A stretch of 64,000 bases of DNA from Minisyncoccia bacterium (GCA_050015515.1 JBEKBG010000001.1:6028-70027); one strand, 5' to 3'; positions 9,290 through 45,867 are shown, numbered from the stretch's first letter. Program-made: numbers and translations. Notes: a model not told the origin generated them from the sequence alone.

Positions 9290-9344
9290 AAGAGAGTCTC
9301 CTTCGCTGACTCCATCCTACCCTAAAGATTAAATTCAAACAATG

Positions 9345-13941: not shown

Positions 13942-14018
13942 GTACCCTTATTTTACCACAAAAAAGATGATATGATAATGACAGCAGAAAGCCGCCGGAT
14001 GGCGCAGGAGGAAACACC

Positions 14019-23768: not shown

Positions 23769-24539
23769 ATGCAAAAATTTGGTCAACATTTTTTAAAGAA
23801 CGCGATGGTCTTGGAAAAGATCGTGGACGCGCTCGCACTCGCGGACGGCGATTGCGTGATAGAGATCGGCCCGGGGCACGGCGAGCTCACCGCGCCGCTT
23901 ACACGCGCGGCGCGCGGAAAACGCTGCGAAATCTTTTGCATCGAAAAAGATCACGCGCTGGTCGGCGGGTTGGGACAATTCGCCGCGCGCGTGACCATCA
24001 TAGAAGGCGATGTATTAAAATTATTACCGGATATGGTAGCAACAAAAATCGTTGGCAACATCCCATACTACATCACCGGAAAATTATTACGCACCATTGG
24101 CGGACTCGAGCACAAACCGGAGCGTACGGTGCTGCTCATCCAAAAAGAGGTGGCGGAGCGGATCTGCGCCGCGCCGCCGGATATGAACCGGCTCGCGGCG
24201 AGCGTGCAGTTTTGGGCGGATGCAAAAATTGTCGCGCACGTGCCGCGCAGCGATTTTTCTCCGGCGCCGGACGTGGATTCGGCGGTGATCGTGCTCAACG
24301 CCGATCATCACGCCGCGCGCGATCTCGATCCGACACTCTATTATAGAGCGGTGCGCGCCATTTTTGCCCAACCCCGGAAAACGCTATTGAATAATCTCTT
24401 CGCGGCGGCAGGAAAAACCGTCAAAAAAAACGATGTCGGCGCGCGGATCGAAAAAATCGGCATCAATCCCGGCTCGCGGCCGCAAGACCTTAGCATCGAT
24501 CAAATCGTTTCCATCGCACATATGGGTTTATGGGGATAA
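23769..24539 (+). CDS. rsmA: 16S rRNA (adenine1518/1519-N6)-dimethyltransferase
   Basis: FGQHFL N-terminus and SAM-binding motifs. 256 aa. Confidence 0.9.
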   Translation: MQKFGQHFLKNAMVLEKIVDALALADGDCVIEIGPGHGELTAPLTRAARGKRCEIFCIEKDHALVGGLGQFAARVTIIEGDVLKLLPDMVATKIVGNIPYYITGKLLRTIGGLEHKPERTVLLIQKEVAERICAAPPDMNRLAASVQFWADAKIVAHVPRSDFSPAPDVDSAVIVLNADHHAARDLDPTLYYRAVRAIFAQPRKTLLNNLFAAAGKTVKKNDVGARIEKIGINPGSRPQDLSIDQIVSIAHMGLWG

Positions 24540-24550
24540 CTGGGGATAAC
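24531..24550. promoter_or_regulatory. tandem TGGGGATAAC x2 (reverse complement of the DnaA-box variant TTATCCCCA)
   Basis: Exact 10-nt tandem duplication overlapping the rsmA stop, 43 bp upstream of the T4SS-like operon start. The same 9-mer occurs twice in the dnaA-dnaN spacer. Confidence 0.35.
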
Positions 24551-24578
24551 CCTTGTAGCACGCATTTTCTTTTGGCGC

Positions 24579-24584
24579 TATAAT
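24579..24584 (+). promoter_or_regulatory. TATAAT -10 hexamer 8 nt upstream of ATG 24593 (short or leaderless 5' UTR)
   Basis: No SD. TTGTAG lies 19 nt upstream. Confidence 0.3.
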
Positions 24585-24592
24585 CTATATTA

Positions 24593-26842
24593 ATGATAGA
24601 TGTCAAGAAGCTGATTACGGGTTTTTTGATCTTGGCTGTCGCTGCGGTCTGTTCTGGGCTGATATTTTCGCTCGCGAACTTTTCATCGCCCGCGACAACC
24701 AATGCCGCCAGCGGAATAGCGATTGGCGCGGGCACCGCAGCCGCAGATAACGCCAACGCGTTCCTGCCCACCGAGGAACAGGTGCAGGAAACCGCCGCCG
24801 CGCTTGCGCCGGAACTCGCATCATCAACAATGCTCGTCAGCTCCACCGACCCGACCAACCTTACCGACGACCTCGCGGCAGAATTTGTGAACGGCGTCGT
24901 TGCCGCGAACCCCAACGGAGCGACCGGCACCGATACCGACGGCAATCCCACCTTCACCTCTCCCGATGTGAACGCGATCGCGGCGAACATCGCCGACAGT
25001 ACCACCACGCAGGCGCTGCAAATTCCTAACTGGGACACCGAGGTCGCGGCAATTCCCGTGACCGTCGTCGCCACCACGAGTGCGACAGCTCTTACCAACT
25101 ACGGCGATGCGGTCAATGGCATTTTAAACAGCCATCTTAACGCGCAAGTGCAAAGCATCGCGAGCGACCAAACCGATGGCGCAACCGCGAGCGAATTAAC
25201 GTATGTGCAGTCGCAGGTGCAAAGCGCGCTTCAAGATACTGCCTCACTAAAAACTCCTGCGCCTGCCGAGGCATATCAGAAAAGTTTATTAGCCAACCTC
25301 GTTTATGAAAAGAACATGATCCAGTTATATACCCTCGCCCAGACCGACCCGGTAAAAGCATCCCTGATCTTCAGTCAAGAAGATACAAAGTTTTCTGCCG
25401 TCCAACAAAATTTTGCGAACCAGGCGCAGGAGCTCACCAGTAATTACCTTTCTCTCGAGCAGGTTCCTCAAAAACCACAAAATGGAATATTACTCTCTTT
25501 TATTAACAATACATTCGGCGTTCCCGAAGCCCACGCACTTTTGCCAGTGTTCGACCCCGCGACGTGGGCCCTGATCATATCGAATGAATGGACAACTATT
25601 CAAACCCAGCTTGAAGGAATCCTTAAAAACATGCTCCTCCAAATCCTCAAGAACGTCCTCATCGCAATTATTCAGCAGAAAGTGCTGGCGTGGGTGCAGG
25701 GGAGCGGGGCGCCGCGATTTATCACCAACTGGGGAACGACGCTCATAAATGTGGCGCAGACAAATGCGCTGAACGCGCTTAATAAAGACATGACGTGCGG
25801 CGCATACTCCGCTTTTGTTCCACAGATCAACATTACCTTAAAAGCTTTTTATTCCCCTAGCGCCAATAATTGCGCAAATCAATTTCAGGCGGCGCTCGGC
25901 GCAAACACCTTCCAACAATTCTATAATAATTTTTCGAATGGGGGATTTGTTGCGTTTGGCGCAAGCACCCTTCCGAGCGGCAACCCTTATGGAGCGCAAT
26001 TTTTTGAAGCTCAGAAAACTGATATCTCTTATCACAATCAGCAGGCAGCCACCGCACTGCAAACACAGACCTCACAAGGATTCAAAGGTGACGCGGTATG
26101 TACCGACGGGAGCAATCCTAACGGAAACAGCACCGTATGCGAAAACCCCAATGGCACATACGATCCGCCCAATATAACCGGGGGAGCATGCCCTGCGGGC
26201 GACAAATCAACCACCGTCTCAAATGGCGGCCTATGCGAGGACGGCACACAACCAATCGTGCAAACGCCTGCGGCGGTCACCGGATTTACCGTTCAAACCA
26301 CGGCAGGTGGCAACGCGACCGTCGCCCAGGTCACCGCAGCGACCGATATCGTCGGCATTCTCAATTCTGTCATGAGTTCCATTGTGATGGGTCTGGCAAA
26401 CGCCGCAGTGAACGCGGCGGGGAAATTGGTGAATCAAACGCTTAGCTCTCCCTCTCTGGATTCCAATATCACCTCCGGTGCCAACCTTTCCGGCATCACT
26501 ACCTCTACTATTGCGAGCACCTCCGCCGCGATCAGCGGCACCCTTGCTTCAATCCCGCTCGCGTGCAATCCGTTGACGCAAACCATCCCGTCCGCATCGG
26601 CCAGCACGCCGACATCAACCGGACTCACGGCTACCAGCACCTCCCCGGTCTCGCTCTCCGCCGCCGGCGGTACGCTTGACGCAAACGACAATCCGCCTAC
26701 TTATAATTGGTCCGACTCCAACGGCGTCACCGGCACTGGCTCGTTCTTCTCCGACACATTCACTATCCCGGGAACGTATACCGTCACCCTCGGCGATTCG
26801 ACGGGCGATGCGCCAACAACATGCACCGTCATTCAACAATAA
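24593..26842 (+). CDS. large secreted/surface protein (749 aa), Ala/Thr/Asn/Gln/Ser-rich; first gene of the T4SS-like operon
   Basis: N-terminal signal/TM, low-complexity repetitive N-half, Cys-containing C-terminal region. Adhesin-like composition. Confidence 0.6.
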   Translation: MIDVKKLITGFLILAVAAVCSGLIFSLANFSSPATTNAASGIAIGAGTAAADNANAFLPTEEQVQETAAALAPELASSTMLVSSTDPTNLTDDLAAEFVNGVVAANPNGATGTDTDGNPTFTSPDVNAIAANIADSTTTQALQIPNWDTEVAAIPVTVVATTSATALTNYGDAVNGILNSHLNAQVQSIASDQTDGATASELTYVQSQVQSALQDTASLKTPAPAEAYQKSLLANLVYEKNMIQLYTLAQTDPVKASLIFSQEDTKFSAVQQNFANQAQELTSNYLSLEQVPQKPQNGILLSFINNTFGVPEAHALLPVFDPATWALIISNEWTTIQTQLEGILKNMLLQILKNVLIAIIQQKVLAWVQGSGAPRFITNWGTTLINVAQTNALNALNKDMTCGAYSAFVPQINITLKAFYSPSANNCANQFQAALGANTFQQFYNNFSNGGFVAFGASTLPSGNPYGAQFFEAQKTDISYHNQQAATALQTQTSQGFKGDAVCTDGSNPNGNSTVCENPNGTYDPPNITGGACPAGDKSTTVSNGGLCEDGTQPIVQTPAAVTGFTVQTTAGGNATVAQVTAATDIVGILNSVMSSIVMGLANAAVNAAGKLVNQTLSSPSLDSNITSGANLSGITTSTIASTSAAISGTLASIPLACNPLTQTIPSASASTPTSTGLTATSTSPVSLSAAGGTLDANDNPPTYNWSDSNGVTGTGSFFSDTFTIPGTYTVTLGDSTGDAPTTCTVIQQ

Positions 26843-26844
26843 CA

Positions 26845-29427
26845 ATGGCGCACAAGAACCACTACAAAAAAATATTCGTCGTCGTCGCGGCGCTGTTCGT
26901 GCTTTTCGCGCCGGTGGGAATAACGACGGTCGGGGGGACGCAAAATTCCACCTCTATTCCAGCGGCCGCGCCAACAACACGAGGAATCCTAATAAAATCA
27001 GCGCCGCCGTCTCCTTATTCTGCATTCCGTTTATCGTTCAATCTTAGCCTTGCGCAGGCGACTCCAACAGCGCCCACTACCGGCGCTGGGGCTGGCCAAA
27101 ATATTCCCGTCAATCCAAATTGGTACAGTTGTACCACGAATCTGGCAACGTGCGGTGTTTATTACGTAGCGCTTACCATAAATGGCGTTATGGGTCTTCT
27201 TGTTTCTCTTGGAGCTACTTTGGTTCGGTTGGGACTTCAACTTAACGATAATGTGTTTAATTCGCCCGCGGTCCAAACGGGATTTTCCGTTGCCCTTGCG
27301 ATCGCGAATCTTGGATTTGTGCTTGGCATTATTATTATCGCCATCGCTACCATTATCAGAAATCAAACCTATGGGATGAAACAGCTTCTTTGGAAGCTGG
27401 TGTTCATGGCCATCCTTGTAAATTTTGGTCTTGTTATCACTGCGCCGATCGTGGGCTTTGCGAGCAGTATGAGTAATTATTTTATCAACGCCACCAGTCC
27501 CTCTTCCGTCAGCATCGCCGGATATGAGGGATATGCCCAAACGATGATGTCCGCCTTCAACCCCCAGGCGCCGGCAGGGGCAGCTTCGGCGGGAACGGGG
27601 ACGCAAAGTTGGACTCCCGCCAGTGGATTTTGTTTAGGTCCTTGGAGCTATTTCAACAGCATCGCGGCCTGGTGCAATAAAAACAATCTACCGACACAGG
27701 ATCCTCCTGGAGTTTTTTGGCAACAGACAATGGCTATGGCTTTCGACATAGTTTTTTCTGCTCTTATCGTCTTTACCTTTTTTTGCCTCGCCATTCTCCT
27801 TCTTATCCGCTACGTTATGCTTGGCGGATTGCTCATCGTCCTTCCTCTTGCGTGGCTTACTTACATATTTCCAAAATTCGATAGTAGCTACAGTAAATGG
27901 TGGAATACTTTTATTAAATGGACATTCTTCCCGCCAATTGCACTTTTTTTCATCTATCTTGCGTTCATTACCGCCACAAATACCAATACTAGTGGAAGTG
28001 CGAGCGCCACCACTGCGGGTCAAACTTATATGACTCAAGCTGTCCAGCTTCCTTCTAACGCACAGACCGGAGTAGAAGCAGCACTGCAAACTCAAACTGG
28101 CACCACCCCGGGCCTTATTCAGTCGATGCTCGACGAAGTCCTTTTGGTAGGTCTCACTGTCATGGGGCTTATGTTCGCTCTTTCGCTTTCCGGAAAGGCG
28201 GGCTCGACGGTGGTAAATGGCGCGACGGCAGTTACTAAGGCGGCGGGAGGATATGTGGGGAAGAAAACCGGCAAAGCTGCAGCGCGAGTTTATCAAAAAG
28301 CAGGAGGGGGAGATCTTAATAAGAATATGCAACAAAGCAGAATTCCTGGCTTCTCGGCGATCGGCAGAGGTATGGCCAACTTGACCGAATCGGCAACCAA
28401 AAATCAGGTTGATGCCCAGCATAAAGCATTGGGGCTTGGCGCCATGGACGATGACCGGCTGCAAGCGGTAACCCAAGGGTTGCACGGGAAGGAAGCCCAG
28501 CTCGCGGCAGTGCAGGAATGGCAGAAGCGTGGAAAAGTGGACAAGATAGAAAGTATCGGCGGCGACAATTTCCAGACATGGCTCAAAAAGAACCAAGGGA
28601 CATTTAAAGATTATGGGCAGGGCAAGCTGCGTGGAGATGTTGATAACGCGATAATGTCGAATGAAGAGATACGGGAGATCGCAAGACAAAAAACCGCCGC
28701 AGCTCCAGCAGCGCGCGCCGCAGCTGAAGTGGTTGATGAAAAAGGGATTGTGGGCCCAGCAGGGGCAACGGTTCGCGCGAGTGATATGGTAAGCCGCGCA
28801 AATGAAGAGGCTAAGAAAGCGCAAGAGATTGTGGATCTTCGGGGAGCTGCTACGTTTATTCCTCATGGGGGAAGCATGGTCAGAGCCGGAGATCTTGTTA
28901 AAGAAGCCCAGGCGGCATCGGAATCTGCGAAGGATGCCATGGATAAAGCGCCAGATGATGCTCTTATTACTGATACGGAAGGCCGCTTAGGAGCAAAAGG
29001 AGAAAAGCAGAAAGCCGGGAAGCTTATGGAAGCCGCTTCTGAAAAATTCTGGGAAGGAAAAGACAAGGGCGATGCCGCAAAGACGCGCCCGAACGTCATA
29101 TTCGGAGATAAGCCAAGCCTCGGCTTTGATAAAGAGCAGCTTAATGAAATCGGGAAGGCGGTAGCCCATGGCGTAGTAGTGCAGGTACCTGGCGTCATGG
29201 GATCGTTAGCGGGCAAGACGGATAACTTGAAACAACTTACCATGCTTACGGAGGCCTACACGAAGAGCGTCCAAGAGGCGGAGAGGTCTAATAAGATATC
29301 AGCAACACAAGCAAAAGCGATGAACTCCGCAATTAAAAAAATGCTCGGGGGGAAACTGGCCTTCATGGGCGGATGGGAGCCAGGATCAGCCCCCACGCCA
29401 GCACCGACACCAACTCCTAAGCCTTAA
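26845..29427 (+). CDS. VirB6/TrbL-like polytopic membrane protein with long K/A/E-rich hydrophilic C-terminal domain
   Basis: ATG 26845 sits 2 nt after the upstream stop. About 6 TM helices across residues 130-420 (pattern typical of TrbL/VirB6), then ~430 aa hydrophilic tail ending in PTPAPTPTPKP. Confidence 0.5.
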   Translation: MAHKNHYKKIFVVVAALFVLFAPVGITTVGGTQNSTSIPAAAPTTRGILIKSAPPSPYSAFRLSFNLSLAQATPTAPTTGAGAGQNIPVNPNWYSCTTNLATCGVYYVALTINGVMGLLVSLGATLVRLGLQLNDNVFNSPAVQTGFSVALAIANLGFVLGIIIIAIATIIRNQTYGMKQLLWKLVFMAILVNFGLVITAPIVGFASSMSNYFINATSPSSVSIAGYEGYAQTMMSAFNPQAPAGAASAGTGTQSWTPASGFCLGPWSYFNSIAAWCNKNNLPTQDPPGVFWQQTMAMAFDIVFSALIVFTFFCLAILLLIRYVMLGGLLIVLPLAWLTYIFPKFDSSYSKWWNTFIKWTFFPPIALFFIYLAFITATNTNTSGSASATTAGQTYMTQAVQLPSNAQTGVEAALQTQTGTTPGLIQSMLDEVLLVGLTVMGLMFALSLSGKAGSTVVNGATAVTKAAGGYVGKKTGKAAARVYQKAGGGDLNKNMQQSRIPGFSAIGRGMANLTESATKNQVDAQHKALGLGAMDDDRLQAVTQGLHGKEAQLAAVQEWQKRGKVDKIESIGGDNFQTWLKKNQGTFKDYGQGKLRGDVDNAIMSNEEIREIARQKTAAAPAARAAAEVVDEKGIVGPAGATVRASDMVSRANEEAKKAQEIVDLRGAATFIPHGGSMVRAGDLVKEAQAASESAKDAMDKAPDDALITDTEGRLGAKGEKQKAGKLMEAASEKFWEGKDKGDAAKTRPNVIFGDKPSLGFDKEQLNEIGKAVAHGVVVQVPGVMGSLAGKTDNLKQLTMLTEAYTKSVQEAERSNKISATQAKAMNSAIKKMLGGKLAFMGGWEPGSAPTPAPTPTPKP

Positions 29428-29435
29428 ACCTCAAA

Positions 29436-30398
29436 ATGATTACCGTCTCACAACAACAAGCAGGCCAACGATGGGATATTATTACCCCGTCGCTTCGTGA
29501 AGCGCTTTTTTCCGACGTGAACGCCGACTTTGTATGGAATCTCTGCCAGAGCGAACATCTTCCCGAGGACAAATCCTATCAAGTTGCCGAATTCGCAGGA
29601 TATGTGCTTCTCGGATTTTTACATCCGGAAGATCTATCGGGAGAACTGGCCTCTTCATTAAATCTGCCCACACCGCTAGCAAAAACAATAAGCGACCAGA
29701 TCAACTCGAGGGTGTTTGCGCCGCTTCGAGCCGATATTGATAAAGTTTATTCCCCATTGAGCAGATTAGGAGATATTTCAATAGGGTCTGCGCCAAAAAT
29801 TCTCCAAGACATCGACGCCTCCCCAAAACACGATATCACACTAAGTAGTATCGCTCCATCAACCCCCAAACCCACAACCCTTTCCGACATCGGCTGGTCA
29901 AAACAACCGGCGATACAGCCAATCACGAGCGCCAAGACCAGCGCTCCAATACCAACTCCTCCAGCTCCGCCAAAACCCGCCGTTGAACCGGCGCCGATGA
30001 TGCTCCATGAGGACACGGTGTTCAAATCTGCGGAAAAAAATATGAGTTTTACGCTATCCAAGCCCGGAGACGCCGTCGAGATGAATATGAATCGCGGTGC
30101 GGTGGTGGTGCCTGCGCCAGCCCGTCCGGCGGTGTTAGAGTTCGGCGGCGCGACGGCAGCGGGCACGTCTGCTCCAAAACCGCCCGCACCCACATCGAGC
30201 ACGGCGCGCGCGCCGGGCTTTGGGTCTTCGCTCGCTTCCATGTCAACCACAAACACCGGCGCACGTAATGTAAGCCAGATCGTGCCGACGACATCAGTAC
30301 AAATCCCTAAGTCACCCACTTCGCCAATGCCGCCGCAGCCGCCACAAGCATCTCCCGCACCCCAGCCCAACAAGTCGATCGTAAAAGATTTCCTTTAA
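29436..30398 (+). CDS. hypothetical protein with Pro/Thr/Ser/Ala-rich C-terminal half
   Basis: No TM. PxP-rich linker. Operon context only. Confidence 0.5.
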   Translation: MITVSQQQAGQRWDIITPSLREALFSDVNADFVWNLCQSEHLPEDKSYQVAEFAGYVLLGFLHPEDLSGELASSLNLPTPLAKTISDQINSRVFAPLRADIDKVYSPLSRLGDISIGSAPKILQDIDASPKHDITLSSIAPSTPKPTTLSDIGWSKQPAIQPITSAKTSAPIPTPPAPPKPAVEPAPMMLHEDTVFKSAEKNMSFTLSKPGDAVEMNMNRGAVVVPAPARPAVLEFGGATAAGTSAPKPPAPTSSTARAPGFGSSLASMSTTNTGARNVSQIVPTTSVQIPKSPTSPMPPQPPQASPAPQPNKSIVKDFL

Positions 30399-30426
30399 TC
30401 GCGGGCTCGGTTTACAATAGTAGGTA

Positions 30427-31029
30427 ATGCAATATCAAGTTCCCCAATTCATCGAGACCGAAGACAAGGTTGTCGGACCGTTCTCGCTCCGACAATTCGC
30501 ATACGTGGGCGTCGCGGCGCTCATAAGCGGCGGCGCTTATTTTTTCCTGCAGACGTGGCTATTCCTTATCATCGCACTTGTGTTGGTGGGCGGATCGCTC
30601 GCGCTTTCGTTCGTAAAGATCAACGGCCGGTCGCTTATTAAAGTGGCCACCGCGGCCTTTTATTATTATTGGAAACCTCAGCTGTATGTGTGGAAACCGG
30701 ACCACCCCATGATCGCCCAGCAACCGCATGCGCCCGCGACAGCGAGGAAATTGCTTCCTGTTGCCGATAGTGCTCCCGAAGGCTTCCTCCATAAGATCTG
30801 GGGGAGCTCACAACACGCTCCCGCAGCCGTGAGGGCGTTGCCGCCCATCGCCGCGATCGCTTCCGGAGATTCCCTCCATAAGAGCTGGGGAAACCTGCAG
30901 ACCGGTACGCCGGAGACAAAAGAGATGTCCGACCGCCAGTTTTTGGAGAAAAAAATGATGGAGCGTTACCAGATATTCCGGCGGTTGAGCGGCGACCGTG
31001 CGGCGGCACGGCGCGTGGATTATCGTTAG
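30427..31029 (+). CDS. VirB3/PrgI-like small membrane protein
   Basis: About 100-aa N-terminal module with two TM helices (FAYVGVAALISGGAYFF..LFLIIALVLVGGSLAL) immediately upstream of VirB4, as in Gram-positive prgI-prgJ. Confidence 0.45.
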   Translation: MQYQVPQFIETEDKVVGPFSLRQFAYVGVAALISGGAYFFLQTWLFLIIALVLVGGSLALSFVKINGRSLIKVATAAFYYYWKPQLYVWKPDHPMIAQQPHAPATARKLLPVADSAPEGFLHKIWGSSQHAPAAVRALPPIAAIASGDSLHKSWGNLQTGTPETKEMSDRQFLEKKMMERYQIFRRLSGDRAAARRVDYR

Positions 31030-31032
31030 AAA

Positions 31033-31734
31033 TTGTGCGAAAATAGAATCATGGCAATCCCACAAATGCAGGATGCGGGGAGTTCCCTGGACCTTGTCGA
31101 CATCAAGGAGATCAAACAGAACACGGTCGTCGTAAAGGACGGCAGCTTCCGGCAGGTCATCATGGTAGGGGGTGTCAACTTTTCATTGAAGTCCGAAACG
31201 GAGCAGAATATCATCACGCAAGCGTATCAGACGTTTCTGAACGGTATTGATTTCCCCCTACAGATCCTTATCCACTCCCGCAAGGTGAATATCGATAAGT
31301 ATATCGAGGCGCTGGCTGCCCGGAAGGAGATAGAACAATCTCCCATCCTGCAAAACCAGATCGACGAATACAGCAAGTTCGTGCAGGGATTTGTGGAAAA
31401 GAACGCAATTATGGAAAAGATCTTTTTGGTGGTCGTCTCGTTTTATCCCGTTTCGGTGCTCCCCAACGCAAAAAAAGTTTCTGTGGCGATCCCATTTTTT
31501 GGGAAAAAGAAAATAAGTCCGGCGGAAACAGCCCAGCGCACGGAGGAAGCGGAAAAGATGTTTGGCGAGAACCTTGCGCAGTTAAGCCAACGCACGACCC
31601 AGGTGACGGGGGGGCTTCTGAACATCGGCCTTGAGACGACGGTGCTCAACGATGAACAGCTCATTGAGCTCTTCTATAATTTTTACAATCCACAGACCAT
31701 CGAACATAAAAAAACGCCCGTGGCGCGCGAATGA
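31033..31734 (+). CDS. VirB4-family ATPase, N-terminal domain (ends at an in-frame TGA)
   Basis: Same reading frame as the 31747 ORF. Only TGA 31732-31734 plus 4 codons separate them. Combined length ~815 aa matches VirB4/TrbE. Confidence 0.55.
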   Translation: MCENRIMAIPQMQDAGSSLDLVDIKEIKQNTVVVKDGSFRQVIMVGGVNFSLKSETEQNIITQAYQTFLNGIDFPLQILIHSRKVNIDKYIEALAARKEIEQSPILQNQIDEYSKFVQGFVEKNAIMEKIFLVVVSFYPVSVLPNAKKVSVAIPFFGKKKISPAETAQRTEEAEKMFGENLAQLSQRTTQVTGGLLNIGLETTVLNDEQLIELFYNFYNPQTIEHKKTPVARE

Positions 31735-31746
31735 TATCATTACCCC

Positions 31747-33483
31747 ATGCCAGACCAGCCACAAGAAAATAATTTCAGCGACGTAAAGAAGATCATCGCG
31801 CCGGCGGGCGCGCAGGTGTTCCCCAACTACCTGAAGATCGGCGACAAGCTCGCAAAGACGTTCTTTGTGTTCTCCTATCCGCGCTACCTTTCCACAGGCT
31901 GGTTCGAACCGCTCATCAACCTGCCGAACCTTTTTGACATCTCGATCTTCATCAACCCGATCGACACCGGGAGCGCGCTCAAGAATCTCCGTAAAAAAGC
32001 CGGACAGCTGGAGTCGCAAATGAACGATGAGCAGGACAAGGGCCTCGTGCGAAATCCGGTGCTGGAAACCGCGATCAACGATGTTGAGGGCCTGCGTGAT
32101 TCATTGCAACAGTCCGAGGAAAAGCTTTTCGACACCGGCGTATATATTACGGTCTACGCGGATACCATGGACGAGCTCGCACGGCTGGAAAGCAAGCTCG
32201 TCACGATGATGGAAGCAAAGCTGATCTACCTTAAGCCCGCGCTCTTTGAGCAGCTTGAGGGATTGTCTTCCATCCTGCCGATCAATAACGACAAGCTCCA
32301 GATCTACTCGCCGATGAACACCGGCCCGATCTCATCATTTTTTCCATTTGTCTCCGAAGATCTCTCCTCCAATGAGGGGATCATGTATGGCATCAACCTG
32401 CATAACAGCAACCTGGTGATCTTCGACCGTTTCTCGTTGGAAAACGCAAATGAAGTGGTGTTCGCCAAATCCGGCTCCGGCAAATCGTACACCACCAAGC
32501 TGGAGATCCTGCGCTCGCTCATGGCGGGTATTGACATGGTGATCGTGATCGACCCGGAAAACGAGTATGACCGCCTCGCAAAGACGTTCGGCGGGAGCAT
32601 GTTCAACATCTCTTTGTCTTCGCACGAGCACATCAATCCGTTCGACGTACCGCCGATCCCGGAGGGAGAAACACCGTCGGATGTTCTGCGATCGCATATC
32701 GTGAACATCGCAAGCCTGTTGAAGCTCATGCTCGGCAAGCTCTCGCCGGAGGAAGACGCGCTGCTCGATCGCGCGATCACGGAAACGTACGCCTCCCGCG
32801 AGATCGTCGCCGATACGGATTTTATCGGCAAAGAACCGCCGCTCTTGGGCGACCTGGAAACGGTACTGCGGAATCTGGAAGGCGGGCGCGGCCTTGCGGA
32901 AAAGCTCTATAAATACACCAAGGGAAGTTTTGCGGGCTTCTTGAACCAGCCAACCAATATCGATGTCAATAATCGCCTTATTGTGTTCTCCATCCGCGAC
33001 CTGGAAGAAGAGCTCCGCCCGCTCGGTATGTTCGTTGTGCTCAACTACATCTGGAACCTCATCCGCGCCAAGCTCGCCAAGCGATTATTGTTCATTGATG
33101 AGGCGTGGATCATGATGCAGAACGAAGACAGCGCGACGTTCTTGTTCGGCCTCGTCAAGCGCGCGCGCAAATATTATCTCGGCGTCACGACGATCACGCA
33201 GGATGTGGAAGACTTCTTGCGGTCGCCTTACGGGCGCCCGATCGTCACCAACTCTTCGCTGCAATTGCTGCTCAAGCAGGCGCCCGCCACGATCGATATT
33301 GTCGCCAAAGCGTTCGATCTCACCGAAGCGGAAAAGAACTTCTTGCTCGGCGCGGAGATCGGCACCGGCATCTTCTTCGCCGGCAAGCGCCACGTGGCCA
33401 TCCAGATCGTCCCGTCGTATTACGAAGATCAAATCATCACGACGAATCCCGAGCAAATCCTGGAGGAAAAAAGTGAGCTATAA
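31747..33483 (+). CDS. VirB4/TrbE/PrgJ-family ATPase, C-terminal ATPase domain
   Basis: Walker A AKSGSGKSYTTK, Walker B LLFIDEAW (DEAW is typical of VirB4), GVTTITQD motif. Confidence 0.8.
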   Translation: MPDQPQENNFSDVKKIIAPAGAQVFPNYLKIGDKLAKTFFVFSYPRYLSTGWFEPLINLPNLFDISIFINPIDTGSALKNLRKKAGQLESQMNDEQDKGLVRNPVLETAINDVEGLRDSLQQSEEKLFDTGVYITVYADTMDELARLESKLVTMMEAKLIYLKPALFEQLEGLSSILPINNDKLQIYSPMNTGPISSFFPFVSEDLSSNEGIMYGINLHNSNLVIFDRFSLENANEVVFAKSGSGKSYTTKLEILRSLMAGIDMVIVIDPENEYDRLAKTFGGSMFNISLSSHEHINPFDVPPIPEGETPSDVLRSHIVNIASLLKLMLGKLSPEEDALLDRAITETYASREIVADTDFIGKEPPLLGDLETVLRNLEGGRGLAEKLYKYTKGSFAGFLNQPTNIDVNNRLIVFSIRDLEEELRPLGMFVVLNYIWNLIRAKLAKRLLFIDEAWIMMQNEDSATFLFGLVKRARKYYLGVTTITQDVEDFLRSPYGRPIVTNSSLQLLLKQAPATIDIVAKAFDLTEAEKNFLLGAEIGTGIFFAGKRHVAIQIVPSYYEDQIITTNPEQILEEKSEL

Positions 33484-33494
33484 TTTCTTCACAT

Positions 33495-34298
33495 ATGGAT
33501 GAAGGAGAAAAACCGTTCCCGATAGAATTCATCGTCATCCTTTTGATCGTCGCTGTGGCGAACGACGTCGCGGAAATTTTTTTCGACCTCCTTGACTTCA
33601 CCGGCGTAGGCGTCGCCGGAGAAGCGATCATGGAGCCGGCAAATTTTGTTTTGGACTTTTTCTTTACCGGAATTTTTTGGTGGAAGGTTGGCCCGGGAGG
33701 CGGCACTATAACGCAATACATCGGAGATATTCTCGAACCATTTCTTATTCCGGGGAGAACAATCTCGGTGGGGCTCGGTATGTGGATAGCGAACCATCCC
33801 AATTCCGCGATAGGGGAAGCGGCGAATACTGCGGTCTCGCTTGAAAGCGGCAACGTCGCGGGTGCGACAGGTGAAGTTGAGGGAATCGCGGGAACTGCGG
33901 AAAAAGAAGCGGCTGATGCCGAGAAGAAACTTCAAGGCGGGAGTGCGAGTGGTACCGGCGAAGGCGGTGAAGGCGGATTAGAAGCTGCTAAAGAAGGCCA
34001 AACTGCCGAATCGAAATCTCCTGAAGCCCAAAGCGGCGGAGAAAAAGAAAACGCCCCCGAAGAAGACGTATTTAAAAATCCCTACGAAAATCCCGTGGGA
34101 ACTGCCGGAGAAGAGCTTAACGAACCACCCGAGGAAGAATTCCACGAAGGGGAAGGATTTAAGCCAAAAGAAGAACCGCAGGAAAACGAGATCCAATCAC
34201 AGAAAGTCGTTGATATTGCGAGCCGCCGGCCGCCATCGCCAAAAAATGAGAACCGCGCAGGTGATGCCGACGCCGAAGACCTCGCAGAAGCGGCATAG
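33495..34298 (+). CDS. membrane protein with highly acidic Gly/Glu-rich C-terminal tail
   Basis: Two to three N-terminal TM helices. C-terminal ~150 aa E/G/A/K-rich and disordered. Confidence 0.5.
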   Translation: MDEGEKPFPIEFIVILLIVAVANDVAEIFFDLLDFTGVGVAGEAIMEPANFVLDFFFTGIFWWKVGPGGGTITQYIGDILEPFLIPGRTISVGLGMWIANHPNSAIGEAANTAVSLESGNVAGATGEVEGIAGTAEKEAADAEKKLQGGSASGTGEGGEGGLEAAKEGQTAESKSPEAQSGGEKENAPEEDVFKNPYENPVGTAGEELNEPPEEEFHEGEGFKPKEEPQENEIQSQKVVDIASRRPPSPKNENRAGDADAEDLAEAA

Positions 34299-34333
34299 CC
34301 TCGTCCATTGGGGGGGGCGCCGATTGGCGGAAT

Positions 34334-35083
34334 TTGTTATACTTAAGGAAAGATATGTTCTCGCGAATTGTGCTTAAAAAGATGGCGCTTGTGGGTTTTA
34401 TCGCGATTGCCCTCGTAGCCGGTGGCACCTTTCTTTTAGTAACATCAATAGCTCACGCACAGACGGCATCATCGCCCACATTTCTTATCACGTGGAAAAC
34501 GACGGGGAGCTATATCCCATCGTTTTATATCGGTAAGGCCTTGTCAACCTATGGGTCGAAGATTACCGCGTCGCTCGAGTTGGTCTCGCCGCAGGGAAAG
34601 ATCCTTGATCTCAGCGGGCAGACGATCTATTGGTACGTGAATGACACCTTAGTGGGCGGTGGAGTGGGTGTTCAACAAGTAACATTCCCGCCTGTCGGTG
34701 ACGCACCGAATACCGCCAACCTACGCGTGACGCTCCCGAACTATAATGGCGCATATCTTATTCACGCGATCAATATCCCTATGGTTCTACCGGAGGCGGT
34801 GATCTACGCGCCATACCCTAATGGGCAGTTTACACAGAATCCGCTGACGGTGCAGGCTATCCCGTATTTCTTTAACATCGCCGATCCTTCCGGCCTTTCC
34901 TACGCGTGGTCGGTAGATGACCAAGCCGGCTCCAACGCCGAAAATCCGGAGACGGCGCAGGTCACGTTGCCGCAGGGCACGCAGTCGGGAACCGGCGTGA
35001 ACGCATCGCTCAGCGTTGAGAATCCCAACGACTCCACCGTCGCCACCGCGAGCGCCAACTTAACCTACGAAAGCCAGCTATGA
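34334..35083 (+). CDS. bitopic secreted protein (topology compatible with VirB8-like, not established)
   Basis: Short cytoplasmic tail, one TM, beta-rich ~200-aa extracytoplasmic domain. Confidence 0.45.
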   Translation: MLYLRKDMFSRIVLKKMALVGFIAIALVAGGTFLLVTSIAHAQTASSPTFLITWKTTGSYIPSFYIGKALSTYGSKITASLELVSPQGKILDLSGQTIYWYVNDTLVGGGVGVQQVTFPPVGDAPNTANLRVTLPNYNGAYLIHAINIPMVLPEAVIYAPYPNGQFTQNPLTVQAIPYFFNIADPSGLSYAWSVDDQAGSNAENPETAQVTLPQGTQSGTGVNASLSVENPNDSTVATASANLTYESQL

Positions 35084-35805
35084 AGAAATTTTTTTATAGC
35101 TTAGCTGCGATTGTCTCAAATTTCTTCCTTTTGTCCGCCGCGCATGCGGTGACGATTAGTATGGCCATCCCGGGCGGCCCAAACGCTTATCCCACCAGCA
35201 CCGGTCCTGGCGGTTTTGTCGCCAACTTCTACCAGTTTGCACTGATGATCGGCGGGGTTCTTGCTTTCGGGGTTATTGTGTATGGAGGAGTGCGATATAT
35301 GGCATCCGCAGGCAATCCTTCGGGGCAAAGCGATGCGAAAGAATGGATAGAGGCGGCTCTGTTGGGATTATTACTACTTGTGGGCGCATATTTTATCCTT
35401 AATGTGGTGAATCCACAGCTGACGAATCTTGTGCCGCCAACGCTCACGCCGGTAAATATCCAAACGCCGGCCGCCGCCACAACACAAACGGAGATACAAA
35501 CCGCTATCGCTGCTTGTGTCGCTGCTTGTCAAGATGCAAGCTGTACCGCTGCATGTAATGCCCAGGGATCATCTTTGCAATCGGCGTTCAGCGGAGCATG
35601 TAGCGCGAACACTTGTCCATCAGGCCAGACGTGTCAAAATGACGGAAGTGGAGGGCATATGTGCCTTAATATCAACCCCTTATCAACAAACCCTCTGGGC
35701 TCTACACCTGCAGGAGATTACTCAAGCTGTGCGCAAGCCAACTGCGCATCGGGCAAAAACTGCGTAGTAGATCTCAGTAATAGCAAATACTACACCTGCA
35801 TGTAA
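35080..35805 (+). CDS. VirB2/TrbC-like pilin with Cys-rich C-terminal extension
   Basis: Signal peptide (AHA|V), two long hydrophobic helices separated by a short polar loop (…VRYMASAGNPSGQSDAKEW…), then a T/Q-rich linker and 12 Cys in the last ~95 aa. Confidence 0.45.
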   Translation: MKKFFYSLAAIVSNFFLLSAAHAVTISMAIPGGPNAYPTSTGPGGFVANFYQFALMIGGVLAFGVIVYGGVRYMASAGNPSGQSDAKEWIEAALLGLLLLVGAYFILNVVNPQLTNLVPPTLTPVNIQTPAAATTQTEIQTAIAACVAACQDASCTAACNAQGSSLQSAFSGACSANTCPSGQTCQNDGSGGHMCLNINPLSTNPLGSTPAGDYSSCAQANCASGKNCVVDLSNSKYYTCM

Positions 35806-35828
35806 TACCCAGCGAAAAATCTATATCT

Positions 35829-37154
35829 ATGAAACGCTATCTCTATATTATAATCGGCATCATCGTCGCGGCGGCCATCGTAATATTGGTTCTTTTCCTG
35901 ATAAAAAATAATGCGGCGAGCACGACGATCACCACCTCGGGGACGACCGGCGGTTCGCTTCCGGCGGCGGGTACGCAAGGGAGTGGTGGATCGGGAGTAA
36001 CGAGCAGCGTTGCCACACTCGGCCTCTCGCCGATAGCAAGTGGCACCAGTGCGAACACAAACAACCAAACGGTTGTGCAAAACTTTGGCGTGCTTTCACA
36101 AAGCCCCGCTTTGGATTATTTCGTTGACGCTCAAAATAATATCACCGCCATCCAACCGACGGGCGCCATTATCACAATAAAAAACGGCCAGACGACGACA
36201 GTAAATTCCTCGACGATTGACGGCATCATCTCCGCAAGCTTTTCCTATGATGGCAAAAAGATCGTTGTGAATTATGGCGATCCGTCCGATCCGCGGGCGG
36301 GCGTTTATGATGTTGCGACGAACGCGTGGACGGCACTGCCGCAGGGAATTCTCTCGCCCCAATGGTCTCCGGCCAATAATTACCAGATCGCATACCTTGC
36401 GGTACCGAGCGCCGGAAAGCTTACGCTCGCTACCGTTAACGCCGCGAATTTAAAAACTACGCCGACGACCCTCCTTACGCTTAACGCGAACGATCTCGCG
36501 CTCCAATGGCCCACGGCGAGCGAATTTATCCTTTCCGATAAGCCGACTTCGCAGAACGCAGGGTCGGTGTGGGTTTATAATTCGTCGGCTGGAACACTGG
36601 AGCCCCTCATATATGAGGTTCCTGGCGCGGAGGGAATATGGAGTCATAATGCCGCCATTCCTTATGGCCTGACCTTCTTTAATAATCCGTCCGGCCAAGG
36701 GGGGAATACATTACAGCTACAGGTTTTTTCTGGAAATTTGCCGACTCAGCCGCTCGTTTTCTCAACCTTGCCTTCCAAGTGCGCTTTTAACACCGAACTC
36801 ATGCCGGTTGCGACATCTACCGCTGGCGCGGCGACGTCCACGACGGCTTCGTCCACCGCAAAGATATCGGCGAAAGTCGCCGCAACTTCCACGCCGTACC
36901 TCGCGCTCTATTGCGGCATTCCACGCAGCTCGAGCGGGTTCTCCTCCGCACACCTGCCGGACGCCTATAATACGATGGCGCTCTTTACCTCCGACGATAT
37001 TTATAAAATAAACACCGCGACGGGCGCGGAACAGGTGCTTTGGAGCGATGCCACACAGAACATGGACGTCTCTGATGTAAAGTTCTTCAATGATGCGTTG
37101 TTCTTTGTAAACCGCTATGATCAAAAACTGTACGGTCTTACTTTTAGTAATTAA
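35829..37154 (+). CDS. secreted Thr/Ser/Gly/Ala-rich protein (beta-propeller-like?), last gene of the operon
   Basis: N-terminal TM/signal and a long beta-rich domain. No motif. Confidence 0.5.
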   Translation: MKRYLYIIIGIIVAAAIVILVLFLIKNNAASTTITTSGTTGGSLPAAGTQGSGGSGVTSSVATLGLSPIASGTSANTNNQTVVQNFGVLSQSPALDYFVDAQNNITAIQPTGAIITIKNGQTTTVNSSTIDGIISASFSYDGKKIVVNYGDPSDPRAGVYDVATNAWTALPQGILSPQWSPANNYQIAYLAVPSAGKLTLATVNAANLKTTPTTLLTLNANDLALQWPTASEFILSDKPTSQNAGSVWVYNSSAGTLEPLIYEVPGAEGIWSHNAAIPYGLTFFNNPSGQGGNTLQLQVFSGNLPTQPLVFSTLPSKCAFNTELMPVATSTAGAATSTTASSTAKISAKVAATSTPYLALYCGIPRSSSGFSSAHLPDAYNTMALFTSDDIYKINTATGAEQVLWSDATQNMDVSDVKFFNDALFFVNRYDQKLYGLTFSN

Positions 37155-37171
37155 TCAACTACGCAATAGTT

Positions 37172-37264
37172 AACCGATAGCATAACAAAATACCCTCTTG
37201 TTTCGAACAATCCCGAAGGGTGAGCCCGTTCGAAACAAGAGGGTATTTTGTTATGCTATCGGTT
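37172..37264. repeat. palindromic element, core family copy D (37-bp perfect arms, core in reverse orientation TCCCGAAGGGTGAGCCC)
   Basis: 37172-37208 is the reverse complement of 37228-37264. Right arm overlaps the last codons and stop of jag. Lies between convergent genes. Confidence 0.7.
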
Positions 37265-39115: not shown

Positions 39116-39286
39116 CCCCTCGATGATACCACACCATTTTAAAAAAGCAAAATAATACCGATGGAGCATATAAAAAGTTCTCCCCACGTAATCCCCAGGA
39201 AGATAACTTTTTAGATCTTTCCCACCCTTTGACTTGTTCCACGGAAGAGATAATAATGAATCCACAAACTTAATCAATTTTTAATC

Positions 39287-40642
39287 ATGGATCTTGAACA
39301 AATGTGGCAGTCGACGTTGGGGGAGATGGAAGTTCAACTGACGAAGGCGCATTTTGCAACGTGGTTAAAAAATAGCCGACCGATCGATAAAAAGGATGAT
39401 ACGCTCTTTGTCGCCCTTCCAAGCAACTTCGCGAAGACATGGGTGGAGGAAAAGTATCAGAAAAACATCATCGGCATCGTCCGGAATATGGACACGTCGG
39501 TTAAAAAGATCGAGTTTGTAGTGGGAAATAAGAATATTTCTTTCAATAAGGCGCCGTCCGAACAAACCACCACACAACAAAATGCCGCCGCCGAGCTGGA
39601 CTTCAATAAGACCGACCCGGAAACGGGGCTCAATCCAAAATACACCCTCGCATCGTTCGTTGTTGGACCCTCAAATGAGCTTGCCTTTGCCGCCGCCACC
39701 GCGATCACCGAAGGGCCGGGCAAAAAATATAATCCTTTTTTCATCTACGGCGGCGTCGGCCTCGGGAAGACCCATCTCATTCAAGCTATCGGCAACGAAC
39801 TCATGGTAAAATATAAGGGTAAAGTAAAAACAAAATATGTTTCTTCGGAACAGTTCACGCGCGACATCGTGTGGGGACTACGCAATGATCGCATCGAAAG
39901 TGTAAAGAAAAAATACCGCGACGTTGACGTGCTGATTATCGACGATATTCAGTTTATCGGCGGAAAGGAAAAAACAGAGGAAGAATTCTTCCATACCTTT
40001 AACGCGCTCTATGAGAATGATAAGCAGATCATTATCTCGTCCGATCGTCCGCCACAGTCGTTGCCAACGCTGGAGGAGCGGCTTCGATCGCGTTTTGAAG
40101 GCGGCCTCATTGCCGATGTTTCCTATCCGGAATACGAGATGCGGGTGGCGATCGTCCGCAGCAAGCTCCAGGAGATGAATCGGCAGCTCCCTGACGAAGT
40201 GATCGACCTCATTGCAAAGCGGCTCCGAAAGAACATCCGTGAGTTAGAGGGGGTTCTTAAAAAGATCATATTCCACGAGGAGCGAAAACAGACGGTGATT
40301 ACCGTAAAGGCGGCCGAGGAGATTATCGAGAAGGTGACCCAGAACCTCTCTAGGCGTGTCACTGATGCCCAAATTTTGAAGTCTGTGGCGGAATTCTTTA
40401 ATATCGCCGTGGAAGACCTCATCAGCCATAATCGCCGGAAAGAAGTGGTGGAGCCGCGCCAGATCGCTATCTATCTTCTTCGGGATATCTCGGAGCTTTC
40501 CTATCCGTATATTGGTGAGAAGCTGGGGAGAGACCACACCACCGCTATCCACTCCTATGAAAAGATCAACCGTGAAATCAACAGGAATCCCGCACTTAAC
40601 CAAAAGATATTAACCATAAAGGATATGATTTATAAGAGTTAA
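39287..40642 (+). CDS. dnaA: chromosomal replication initiator protein DnaA
   Basis: AAA+ Walker A GGVGLGKTHL, sensor motifs, C-terminal DNA-binding domain. Confidence 0.95.
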   Translation: MDLEQMWQSTLGEMEVQLTKAHFATWLKNSRPIDKKDDTLFVALPSNFAKTWVEEKYQKNIIGIVRNMDTSVKKIEFVVGNKNISFNKAPSEQTTTQQNAAAELDFNKTDPETGLNPKYTLASFVVGPSNELAFAAATAITEGPGKKYNPFFIYGGVGLGKTHLIQAIGNELMVKYKGKVKTKYVSSEQFTRDIVWGLRNDRIESVKKKYRDVDVLIIDDIQFIGGKEKTEEEFFHTFNALYENDKQIIISSDRPPQSLPTLEERLRSRFEGGLIADVSYPEYEMRVAIVRSKLQEMNRQLPDEVIDLIAKRLRKNIRELEGVLKKIIFHEERKQTVITVKAAEEIIEKVTQNLSRRVTDAQILKSVAEFFNIAVEDLISHNRRKEVVEPRQIAIYLLRDISELSYPYIGEKLGRDHTTAIHSYEKINREINRNPALNQKILTIKDMIYKS

Positions 40643-40774
40643 TCCAGCGCTTATCCCCGTGGCGATGGGCGAAAAATATAATTAATACTTGATTAAATAA
40701 TTTTTATCCCCAGAAAAGCGCTTCACTAATAACAACTCTAATAAAAAGTATTTAATATAAATTATAATTAAGAG
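40643..40774. promoter_or_regulatory. candidate oriC core: AT-rich dnaA-dnaN spacer with two TTATCCCC(A/G) DnaA-box variants
   Basis: Boxes at 40651-40659 and 40704-40712 in direct orientation. About 100 bp of AT-rich sequence could serve as an unwinding element. Confidence 0.5.
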
Positions 40775-41887
40775 ATGAAATTTATCGCAATCCGTTCAAA
40801 TATCAAAGATGCGGTTTCAACCATTGAGAAGGCGGTTGGAGAAAACACCAATCTACCAATATTAAAAAACATTTTTATTGAGGCGGAGAACAACACTATC
40901 ATTTTTTCCGCCACCAACTTGGAGATTGCGATCACCCACCGCGTTGCGGGAAAGGTGATCGAGGATGGGAAGATAACCGTGCCTCTCGCGCTTTTTTCTA
41001 GCCTTATTGGGAACATCCAGAGCGACCGGTTGAATTTTGAGAAGAAGGAAAATAACATGGAGATCGCGACGGATAATTACAGCGCGGTGATCAATGGGAT
41101 GTCGCCGGAAGATTTTCCCCTCACGCCGAAAATAAAAAACACCGAGAGCTATATTGAGATCAAAGGCGCGTTTCTCAAGGAGGCGATCCAGCAGGTGACG
41201 GTCGCGTCGCAGTATTCCGATCTGCGGCCGGAGTTGAACAGCGTTCTATTTAATTTTTCATTGGAAAGTTTGGTGCTCGCGTCGACTGATGGATTTCGTT
41301 TGGCGGAGCGATCGATCCCCTCGAATCTTTTTGTGATAAAAAAGAAGGAGCCGTTCAAGATGCTTATTCCTCTGCGAACGGCCATTGAGGTGGCGCGCAT
41401 CATGCGCGATGACGAAGTGGTGCGTATCCATCAGGATGAAAACCAGGTATTGTTTAAAACCGACCAGACGGAACTGATTTCCCGGTTGGTGGAAGGCGCG
41501 TTCCCGGATTATTCCGCGATCGTGCCGCACGAGTTCGCCGCGGAGATCGTGGTAAATCGCGATGAATTCTTGAACGCGATAAAGCTCGCTGGCGTATTCG
41601 GCCAGAAGAACAGCGAGGTTAAAATAAGGATCCATCACAACAAAAAAGCGATCGAGATCAGCTCCGCGGACCAGGCGCTTGGCGAGAACAACAACGTCCT
41701 CCCGGCGAAGATACAAGGAGACATCCCGGAAGTGTTTTTTAATTGGCGCTATCTCTCCGATCCAATGAAGGGCATTAAAGCGGAGGAGGTGTTTCTCGGG
41801 CTGCAGGAAGACGCAGGACCGGCACTGATCCGTTCAGTGAGCGATCAATCGTATTTCTATGTGTTGAAGCCGATTCTCAAACCCTAG
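40775..41887 (+). CDS. dnaN: DNA polymerase III beta sliding clamp
   Basis: Three-domain beta-clamp, 370 aa, immediately after dnaA. Confidence 0.92.
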   Translation: MKFIAIRSNIKDAVSTIEKAVGENTNLPILKNIFIEAENNTIIFSATNLEIAITHRVAGKVIEDGKITVPLALFSSLIGNIQSDRLNFEKKENNMEIATDNYSAVINGMSPEDFPLTPKIKNTESYIEIKGAFLKEAIQQVTVASQYSDLRPELNSVLFNFSLESLVLASTDGFRLAERSIPSNLFVIKKKEPFKMLIPLRTAIEVARIMRDDEVVRIHQDENQVLFKTDQTELISRLVEGAFPDYSAIVPHEFAAEIVVNRDEFLNAIKLAGVFGQKNSEVKIRIHHNKKAIEISSADQALGENNNVLPAKIQGDIPEVFFNWRYLSDPMKGIKAEEVFLGLQEDAGPALIRSVSDQSYFYVLKPILKP

Positions 41888-45384: not shown

Positions 45385-45867
45385 TCATCGCGTGCTGTCA
45401 AGCAAGTGGTCGCCTGTGGATAAGATCGCGAGTGCGAGCGCGTCGCTCGCGTCATCGATTACCCTAAGGTCAGCCTTGCCCAGGATAAGGCGTACCATCT
45501 TAAGCACCGCTTTCTTGTCCGCCATACCGTATCCCGCCACGCCGGACTTTACTTCGTTCGGGGTGTATTCCTTTATACGAACACCGCGCTCTTTTGTTGC
45601 AAGAAGGATGACGCCGCGTGCCTGTGCTACCGCGAGCGCGGTTTTTGTATTTTTTGCAAAGAACAATTTTTCAATGGCCACCACATCCGGCTTGTGCTTT
45701 TTTATGAGCGCATCGATGCCTTTTTTTGTCTCCTTAAGCGCAGGGACGTCGTCGGCGGAGGTGATGGTAAGAATTCCCGCAGCCACGTAGGCGACCGTCG
45801 GCCCATTACACTCCACCACGCCGTATCCTATCCGCCGGGTTCCGGGGTCAATGCCAAGCGCGATCAT
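45385..45867 (-). CDS. ruvC: crossover junction endodeoxyribonuclease RuvC
   Basis: Start moved to ATG 45867 (MIALGIDPGTRRIGYGVVE). Confidence 0.88.
   Translation of the reverse strand: MIALGIDPGTRRIGYGVVECNGPTVAYVAAGILTITSADDVPALKETKKGIDALIKKHKPDVVAIEKLFFAKNTKTALAVAQARGVILLATKERGVRIKEYTPNEVKSGVAGYGMADKKAVLKMVRLILGKADLRVIDDASDALALAILSTGDHLLDSTR

Follow-up and report, generated by a model that had tools for sequence, protein, structure and literature searches.

What kind of secretion machinery lies beside the replication origin of a Minisyncoccia bacterium, whether it is a mobile element or a fixed part of the chromosome, and how its expression may be set, are the questions raised by a block of ten genes at 24593-37154 of the stretch of DNA analysed here (64,000 nt, GCA_050015515.1 JBEKBG010000001.1:6028-70027; hereafter the window, whose coordinates are used for all positions unless another locus is named). 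An initial annotation of this DNA had described the block as a minimal VirB4/VirB6-type type IV secretion system (T4SS), of the sort found in Gram-positive bacteria and the candidate phyla radiation (CPR), and had been unable to name a system that matched it. We find that the locus is very probably a chromosomal, vertically inherited T4SS of the Patescibacteria clade, derived from the conjugation machinery of monoderm bacteria (mating-pair formation class MPF-FATA) and carried here in a Paceibacteria/Minisyncoccia genome. A matching system does exist, i.e. the Patescibacteria-clade T4SS of Quinonero-Coronel et al. 2025 (PMC12102498; reviewed in PMC12857230), and the match includes the position on the chromosome; the system, its relaxase-poor gene set and its place at the dnaA side are already published, such that the initial interpretation is right, but not new. 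The parts that go beyond the published account are a DnaA-box/leaderless promoter proposed for the first gene (g1), a -10-like hexamer before the fourth (g4), and a hypervariable, Cys-rich extension of the pilin.

Components and inheritance of the gene cluster

Assignments to VirB3, VirB4 and VirB2-like families each pass curated thresholds, which upholds the description of a minimal apparatus and means that VirB4 is not the sole T4SS homologue of the block, in which five ORFs can be given a T4SS identity. The sixth gene, g6, encodes a VirB4 ATPase that exceeds the cut-off of the NCBIfam conju_CD1110 model (399.8 bits vs 325), matches Pfam P-loop_TraG at 84.6 bits, and carries in its translation both the Walker A (KSGSGKS) and the DEAW Walker B motifs that had been reported for it. 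The VirB3/PrgI-like protein proposed initially corresponds to g4 (Pfam PrgI, 36.4 bits vs a threshold of 27), which occurs in 70 relatives, immediately 5' of g5-g6; similarly, the Cys-rich VirB2-like pilin corresponds to g9, with a Pfam T4SS_pilin (PF18895) score of 33.4 bits vs a threshold of 26.6. All ten open reading frames (ORFs) lie in one direction, in agreement with the initial annotation, and are separated by 2, 8, 28, 3/21, 12, 11, 35, -4 and 23 nt from g1 to g10, i.e. by gaps of 2-35 nt with a single 4-bp overlap:

g1, 24593-26842, + strand: 749-aa surface protein, anchored at its N-terminus and conserved in its centre, with a PKD domain at the C-terminus
g2, 26845-29427, + strand: extended VirB6-like polytopic protein, with a helical membrane domain of ~430 aa and a hydrophilic, Lys/Ala/Glu-rich tail of ~430 aa
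g3, 29436-30398, + strand: 320-aa protein whose N-terminal ~110 aa form a conserved domain, followed by a Pro-rich tail
g4, 30427-31029, + strand: VirB3/PrgI-family small membrane protein
g5, 31051-31734, + strand (alternative TTG start at 31033): TrsD-like protein, the N-terminal domain of VirB4 as an ORF of its own
g6, 31747-33483, + strand: VirB4 ATPase of the CD1110 family
g7, 33495-34298, + strand: small membrane protein with two to four putative transmembrane helices (judged by eye) and an acidic, Gly/Ala/Glu low-complexity tail
g8, 34334-35083, + strand: membrane anchor followed by two tandem Ig-like beta-sandwich domains (predicted), its stop codon overlapping the g9 start by 4 nt
g9, 35080-35805, + strand: VirB2-like T4SS pilin
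g10, 35829-37154, + strand: N-terminally anchored beta-propeller with TolB/PD40-like blades

The earlier gene list stands as regards VirB4, with the correction that g5 is a separate VirB4 N-terminal domain. Matches of g5 to NCBIfam models (VirB4_plasma, positions 104-215, E 4e-11; TrsD, E 1e-6; VirB4_CagE, positions 19-192) cover N-terminal model positions only and are below the full-length cut-offs, and the alignment of g6 spans positions 186-733 of the CD1110 model, so that VirB4 is encoded here in two pieces. In the window copy, g5 and g6 are in frame with each other, with a single TGA and four codons between them (31732-31749). Readthrough, or a recent nonsense mutation, could be ruled out as the origin of this arrangement: the shared frame is found in only 14 of 75 relatives, with spacers of variable length, and the split is kept in 72 loci that use all three stop codons and show no preference of frame. 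These comparisons indicate that the split is genuine and old, and that the in-frame TGA of the window is coincidental.

Homologues of g6 number in the thousands in Paceibacteria, at ~578 aa and 82-96% identity; the nearest of those that carry a source name are labelled Paceibacterota, Minisyncoccia or Patescibacteria, and g2 is 100% identical to a protein of a Minisyncoccia metagenome-assembled genome. The closest plasmid-borne VirB4 proteins, which are 30-37% identical, belong to Actinobacteria and Firmicutes (monoderms) and to the CD1110 family. A scan of one genome per species located 80 loci, and the order uvrD-rsmA-g1..g10-jag-yidC-dnaA-dnaN, i.e. the same block beside rsmA and jag, proved to be syntenic in approximately 45 Paceibacteria species; more distant classes, e.g. 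Moranbacteria, retain only g2 and g4-g5-g6. Across 33 syntenic loci the median identity of VirB4 (g6) is 86%, vs 74% for DnaA and 65% for DnaN, indicating strong purifying selection on VirB4; the corresponding values for g2 and g1 are 36% and 33%. Since the block is syntenic in so many species, and its VirB4 better conserved than DnaA, we conclude from these comparisons that the cluster is core machinery passed on vertically, with its ancestry in monoderms (MPF-FATA), rather than an integrative conjugative element (ICE).

VirB6, the pilin and the accessory envelope proteins

The polytopic VirB6/TrbL-like protein with a hydrophilic tail that had been proposed for g2 is sustained by structure prediction. 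An AlphaFold2 model of residues 1-500, built from 74 sequences (predicted local distance difference test, pLDDT, 76.9), shows the membrane domain to have the predicted fold of TrwI/VirB6, and the term 'extended VirB6', as used in PMC12857230, fits a protein with a hydrophilic tail of this length. A profile search of the PDB with g2 returned nothing.

The pilin g9 comprises a signal peptide and two hydrophobic helices, followed by a C-terminal extension of 130 aa that contains 12 Cys. Among relatives the core is conserved and the extension ranges from 0 to ~240 aa and from 0 to 32 Cys, the pattern expected of an exposed, fast-evolving domain. One distant relative has a different arrangement (L047, 12589-13647 of that locus), with the pilin gene preceding the g8 homologue and a lytic transglycosylase-like motif (GIESGG...GLFQIN) in the C-terminal extension, which suggests a putative pilin-VirB1 fusion.

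The remaining proteins had been described as a large adhesin-like surface protein together with proteins of unknown fold; the first part holds, g1 being a PKD-tailed surface protein, and folds can now be assigned to g8 (Ig-like) and g10 (TolB-like). The PKD match of g1 is sub-threshold in the window copy (20.8 bits), and 11 of 28 orthologues match, the best with E 1e-11. An internal motif of g1, FGVPEAHA-LLPVFDP (25500-25560, residues ~303-322), takes the form FG(I/V)xTA(H/Y/N)A-Q-x-x-(V/T)FDP in orthologues (L001-L052; also given as TAHA-Q-x-x-VFDP), and resembles the signal-peptidase site and mature N-terminus of VirB5/TrwJ (VMA-QGIPVFD). Sub-threshold matches to DUF4141 fall on this motif in at least six orthologues, as does a weak TrbJ match in one. 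Alignment of g1 with TrwJ of R388 by hhalign was not significant (the R388 sequences used for this and for TrwI were those of NC_028464), and the PDB profile search yielded PKD only; a VirB5-like identity for g1 is possible, as a lead.

For g8, whose predicted model is confident (pLDDT 83.4), identity with VirB8 was considered and is ruled out by the fold, the protein being modelled as Ig-like sandwiches and not as NTF2; its profile search of the PDB gave nothing. The orthologue profile of g10 (35 orthologues) matches TolB chains in the PDB with E 8e-5, over one TolB blade. The g3 protein, present in 41 relatives, has no Pfam match, no sequence relative in the PDB and no transmembrane segment evident by eye. 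No Pfam or NCBIfam match was found for g7, although nearly all syntenic relatives have a positional counterpart of 187-346 aa that is alike in architecture and divergent in sequence.

Chromosomal setting, promoters and DnaA boxes

Pfam identifies the genes on the upstream flank as comM, uvrD and rsmA (+ strand) and those downstream as jag (R3H) and yidC (- strand), followed by dnaA and dnaN (+ strand), which places the cluster between rsmA and jag and about 2 kb from dnaA, as first described. The cumulative GC (guanine/cytosine) skew reaches its minimum at ~37-39 kb, and ~70% of coding bases on either side are co-directional with replication when the 19.3-37.2 kb block is excluded; skew minimum and coding-strand bias both speak for an origin located at dnaA and for a block that runs head-on to replication, as had been proposed. 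The dnaA-dnaN spacer holds DnaA-box variants adjoining an AT-rich stretch. Elements of the promoters and the origin side that may bear on expression are as follows:

24531-24550, + strand: tandem DnaA-box-like 9-mers, TGGGGATAAC twice, equal to TTATCCCCA on the - strand
24579-24584, + strand: P1, candidate -10 hexamer TATAAT, 8 nt before the g1 ATG, with no Shine-Dalgarno (SD) sequence and no canonical -35
30413-30418, + strand: P2, -10-like hexamer TACAAT, 8 nt before the g4 ATG
37172-37264, no strand assigned: hairpin with a perfect stem of 37 bp between the convergent g10 and jag (minimum free energy -66.9 kcal/mol, z -14.4)
39287-40642, + strand: dnaA

The TATAAT reported at 8 nt from the g1 ATG, with no SD, is thus present and is also conserved: 23 of 30 genomes have a -10-like hexamer 6-10 nt before the predicted g1 ATG, the distance being exactly 8 nt in most of them, and counting 5-10 nt before the start gives 20 of 26 relatives vs 4 in a control window. 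Equivalent counts before g4 are 26 of 47 relatives vs 1 of 47. In a scan for canonical sigma-70 promoters, the g1 promoter yielded no -35/-10 pair, and internal promoters were not in excess. The notion of a single leaderless operon is borne out by conservation as regards the leaderless start, whilst 'single' probably oversimplifies, given the second conserved -10-like hexamer before g4. P2 is likely to be an internal leaderless promoter, and the cluster is likely to comprise at least two transcription units, g1-g3 and g4-g10. The hairpin that follows g10 overlaps the final codons of jag and greatly exceeds the usual terminators in length; at the g10/jag junction of relatives the hairpins are shorter and mostly of the A-tract/stem/T-tract form. 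The likely role of the window hairpin is that of a bidirectional terminator closing the cluster.

Of the two DnaA-box-like copies, both present as first reported, the first overlaps the rsmA stop codon and only the second, promoter-proximal copy (24541-24549) is conserved in relatives. The 9-mer TTATCCCCA occurs three times in the 64 kb, vs 0.42 expected by chance, the two tandem copies being joined by a third in the dnaA-dnaN spacer. In 847 kb of sequence from relatives, TG[GT]GGATAA occurs 57 times, with 39-41 of these copies in rsmA/g1 or dnaA/dnaN spacers. A box of the form TGGGGATAA or TGTGGATAA is found at the g1 promoter in 18 of 30 genomes, always in + orientation and 27-31 nt before the -10 (mode 29), and box and -10 occur together in 16 of the 30. 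Because orientation and spacing relative to the -10 are held whilst the sequence between the two diverges, a promoter-linked role of the box is indicated, and we infer that P1 is a DnaA-modulated, effectively leaderless promoter.

An alternative is that TGGGGATAA is not a DnaA site at all, but the operator of another regulator, or else that it belongs to a DnaA-titrating or origin-accessory cluster with no role in T4SS transcription. DnaA binding is deduced from sequence, only one or two boxes are present, and 12 of the 30 genomes have no box at the g1 promoter; moreover, clusters of DnaA boxes close to oriC are known to modulate initiation in Bacillus. Set against these points, the motif is the DnaA-box consensus TTATCCACA or one mismatch from it, with two relatives carrying the exact consensus TGTGGATAA at this very position, the same variant marks the dnaA-dnaN spacer, and neither the orientation nor the 27-31 nt spacing has drifted along with the intervening sequence. 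We regard this alternative as a possibility to be kept in mind, albeit a doubtful one, and retain DnaA modulation of P1 as the working proposal. Literature searches linking DnaA boxes, T4SSs and CPR found nothing, and neither did those on leaderless transcription in Patescibacteria; at the level of full text, no paper was found that contained 'leaderless', 'Patescibacteria' and 'Shine-Dalgarno' together.

Similar elements occur elsewhere in the window. An SD-like sequence precedes ~10 of 60 ORFs and a -10-like hexamer lies 5-10 nt before the start codon in 11 of 60, e.g. at 40755-40777 (dnaN), 13942-13960 (tyrS), 58040-58062, 59150-59171 and 62436-62457, and this genome of the Paceibacteria may make wide use of leaderless mRNAs. 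DnaA-box matches within one mismatch number 26, vs 9.4 expected. Exact copies of the consensus TTATCCACA outside the origin region are found at 12730-12738, 12833-12841, 45415-45423 and 50315-50323; the 3' end of tyrS lies between two of these, and another is at the start of ruvB. On the 5' side of dnaA (39170-39200), TTCTCCCCA and TAATCCCCA form a pair of near-box repeats with a spacing of 11 nt, suggestive of a bipartite origin that would flank dnaA and use the same CCCCA box variant.

Three further features of the window lie apart from these elements. A PilB/T2SSE-type ATPase with an MshEN domain (47366-49075, E 3e-117) indicates putative machinery for type IV pili at a distance of ~10 kb from the T4SS. 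A tRNA-Ile has the anticodon TAT, an unusual way to read AUA (the tRNA sites listed are 9344-9416 and 52238-52313), and ARAGORN places a tRNA-Ser(CGA) within the ORF at 52201-52947, with no Rfam confirmation at the gathering threshold.

Relation to known systems, and possible function

The survey of T4SSs across Patescibacteria (PMC12102498) describes a monophyletic VirB4 clade related to MPF-FATA, with genes for TrsD, PrgI/VirB3, VirB6 and VirB2-like (PF18895) proteins abundant near virB4. Relaxase genes were found there in only ~100 genomes, few of them near virB4, and homologues of the type IV coupling protein (T4CP; VirD4) in many genomes, with a small minority near virB4; T4SSs of Paceibacteria were located near dnaA, dnaN, ksgA, rnpA and rpmH, which the authors read as a gene-dosage effect. 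The present locus shares with these systems TrsD together with VirB4, PrgI/VirB3, VirB6 and a VirB2-like PF18895 pilin, the lack of a nearby relaxase or T4CP, and the chromosomal position beside the same dnaA, dnaN, ksgA, rnpA and rpmH genes. It differs in having a single pilin gene with a Cys-rich extension, in contrast to the array of 2-11 pilins of Saccharimonadia, and in having no peptidoglycan hydrolase in the cluster. The survey makes no mention of a DnaA-box/leaderless promoter, a g4 promoter, the head-on orientation or the pilin extension.

With the MPF-FATA systems of monoderms (CTn2/CD1110 of C. difficile, Prg of pCF10, Trs of pGO1/pSK41) the locus shares a VirB4 above the CD1110 equivalog cut-off, a PrgI-type VirB3, a TrsD-like separate N-domain of VirB4 as in the pGO1 subclass, and the absence of outer-membrane core proteins. 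Unlike them, it has no relaxase, T4CP, VirB1-like hydrolase or VirB8-like protein, possesses a VirB2-like pilin, which Gram-positive systems lack, and is chromosomal and vertically inherited, the VirB4 being only distantly related to its plasmid counterparts at the identities given above. The predicted TrwI/VirB6 fold of g2, the VirB2-, VirB3- and VirB4-type partners and the resemblance of the g1 motif to the mature N-terminus of VirB5 recall R388 Trw and A. tumefaciens VirB (MPF-T), whereas VirB7, VirB9, VirB10, VirB11 and VirD4 are absent here, and sequence similarity to TrwI and TrwJ of R388 is not significant. Bordetella Ptl, Brucella VirB and H. pylori ComB are likewise T4SSs that have no VirD4 coupling protein and are not conjugative (PMC12857230); these, however, are diderm systems with VirB7-10 cores, whose substrates arrive via the periplasm or are imported.

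As regards function, two reviews give a homologous locus of Southlakia epibionticum as essential for its growth as an epibiont (PMC12857230, citing Wang et al. 2023; PMC11665869). The role of that locus is described as open, with effector delivery or uptake suggested (PMC12857230, PMC11665869). The machine described here would serve an epibiotic lifestyle, through effector delivery or the uptake of host molecules, and not conjugation. VirB4/TrsD, docked via VirB3 on a VirB6 channel, would form the membrane translocon and power assembly of a VirB2-type pilus, steps that are proposed because of the established architecture of T4SSs. The extracellular part may then be decorated or supported by the variable, Cys-rich C-terminal domain of the pilin together with g1 (PKD tail), g8 (Ig-like domains) and g10 (propeller), which would also make contact with the host cell. 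Expression would start at the leaderless g1 promoter coupled to the DnaA box, with DnaA probably modulating the first unit, and a second leaderless start before g4 is also likely.

These proposals can be drawn together, more speculatively, into one scheme: DnaA bound ~29 nt 5' of the -10, with its site centred near -46, would set the leaderless promoter of the g1 (surface protein)-VirB6-g3 unit, and so couple the building of the contact apparatus to the state of replication initiation in an obligate epibiont, with g1 acting as a VirB5-like stalk or tip and the hypervariable Cys-rich domain of the pilin as the determinant of host specificity. Taken as a whole, we consider this scheme tentative, and less likely to hold than to fail in one or other of its parts.

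A number of points weigh against our reading. No function, cargo or direction of transport has been shown for any Paceibacteria T4SS, and the essentiality data come from a species of Saccharimonadia only. The window copy of g2 has no family match, its relatives give sub-threshold TrbL/VirB6 matches only, and its hhalign comparison with TrwI of R388 was not significant. Neither a VirB1-type hydrolase nor a VirB8-like protein was found in the cluster, and genes for a T4CP or a relaxase could lie beyond the 64-kb window. Lastly, transcription starts and DnaA binding have both been read from the DNA, and the twelve genomes with no box at the g1 promoter count here too.

The main rival as to function is a DNA-uptake machine of the ComB kind, i.e. 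a T4SS with neither T4CP nor relaxase that imports DNA or nucleotides from the host or the environment. The want of a T4CP and a relaxase among the scanned window ORFs accords with this, as does, weakly, the position of the cluster directly 3' of comM and uvrD in a conserved co-directional block; PMC12102498 reports co-location with comF, recG and radA in class ABY1, and PMC11665869 raises nucleotide uptake as a candidate role of the T4SS. The adjacency to comM and uvrD may nevertheless be fortuitous, no ComB-specific component or DNA-binding protein has been identified, and type IV pili and ComEC already serve competence in Patescibacteria. In Southlakia, comEC is dispensable and the T4SS essential (PMC12857230), which implies a role other than classical transformation. 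DNA uptake appears unlikely on this balance, and we would favour a role in host interaction.

That the locus is an integrated or decaying ICE, its relaxase and integrase just out of view, is very improbable and is ruled out largely by synteny and conservation: the VirB4 does belong to the CD1110 family typical of Firmicutes ICEs and the gene set does descend from conjugation systems, but the same rsmA-jag/yidC/dnaA site is occupied in all of the ~45 species, VirB4 is more conserved than DnaA, the GC content of the block (0.50-0.54) is inside the range of the rest of the window (0.44-0.56), and, consistent with the non-mobilisable element first described, there is no relaxase, T4CP or integrase among 40 ORFs scanned (the 10 cluster proteins and 30 other large ORFs of the window), no tRNA at the cluster borders and no flanking direct repeats, nor any other ICE gene found flanking it in the window.

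As a kind of system, the locus is not new. No T4SS before that of the Patescibacteria had been reported as essential to its own bacterium, and comparison across relatives shows the ten genes to form a fixed architecture in Paceibacteria, five of them coding for conserved envelope proteins specific to the lineage; support for VirB6 from predicted structure and two candidate leaderless promoters provide further handles on this machine. Worth following are the arrangement of DnaA box and leaderless promoter, the extension of the pilin and the possibility that g1 is VirB5-like. Conservation of the predicted DnaA box offers a testable link between replication control and attachment to the host, and the hypervariable domain of the pilin may underlie host range.

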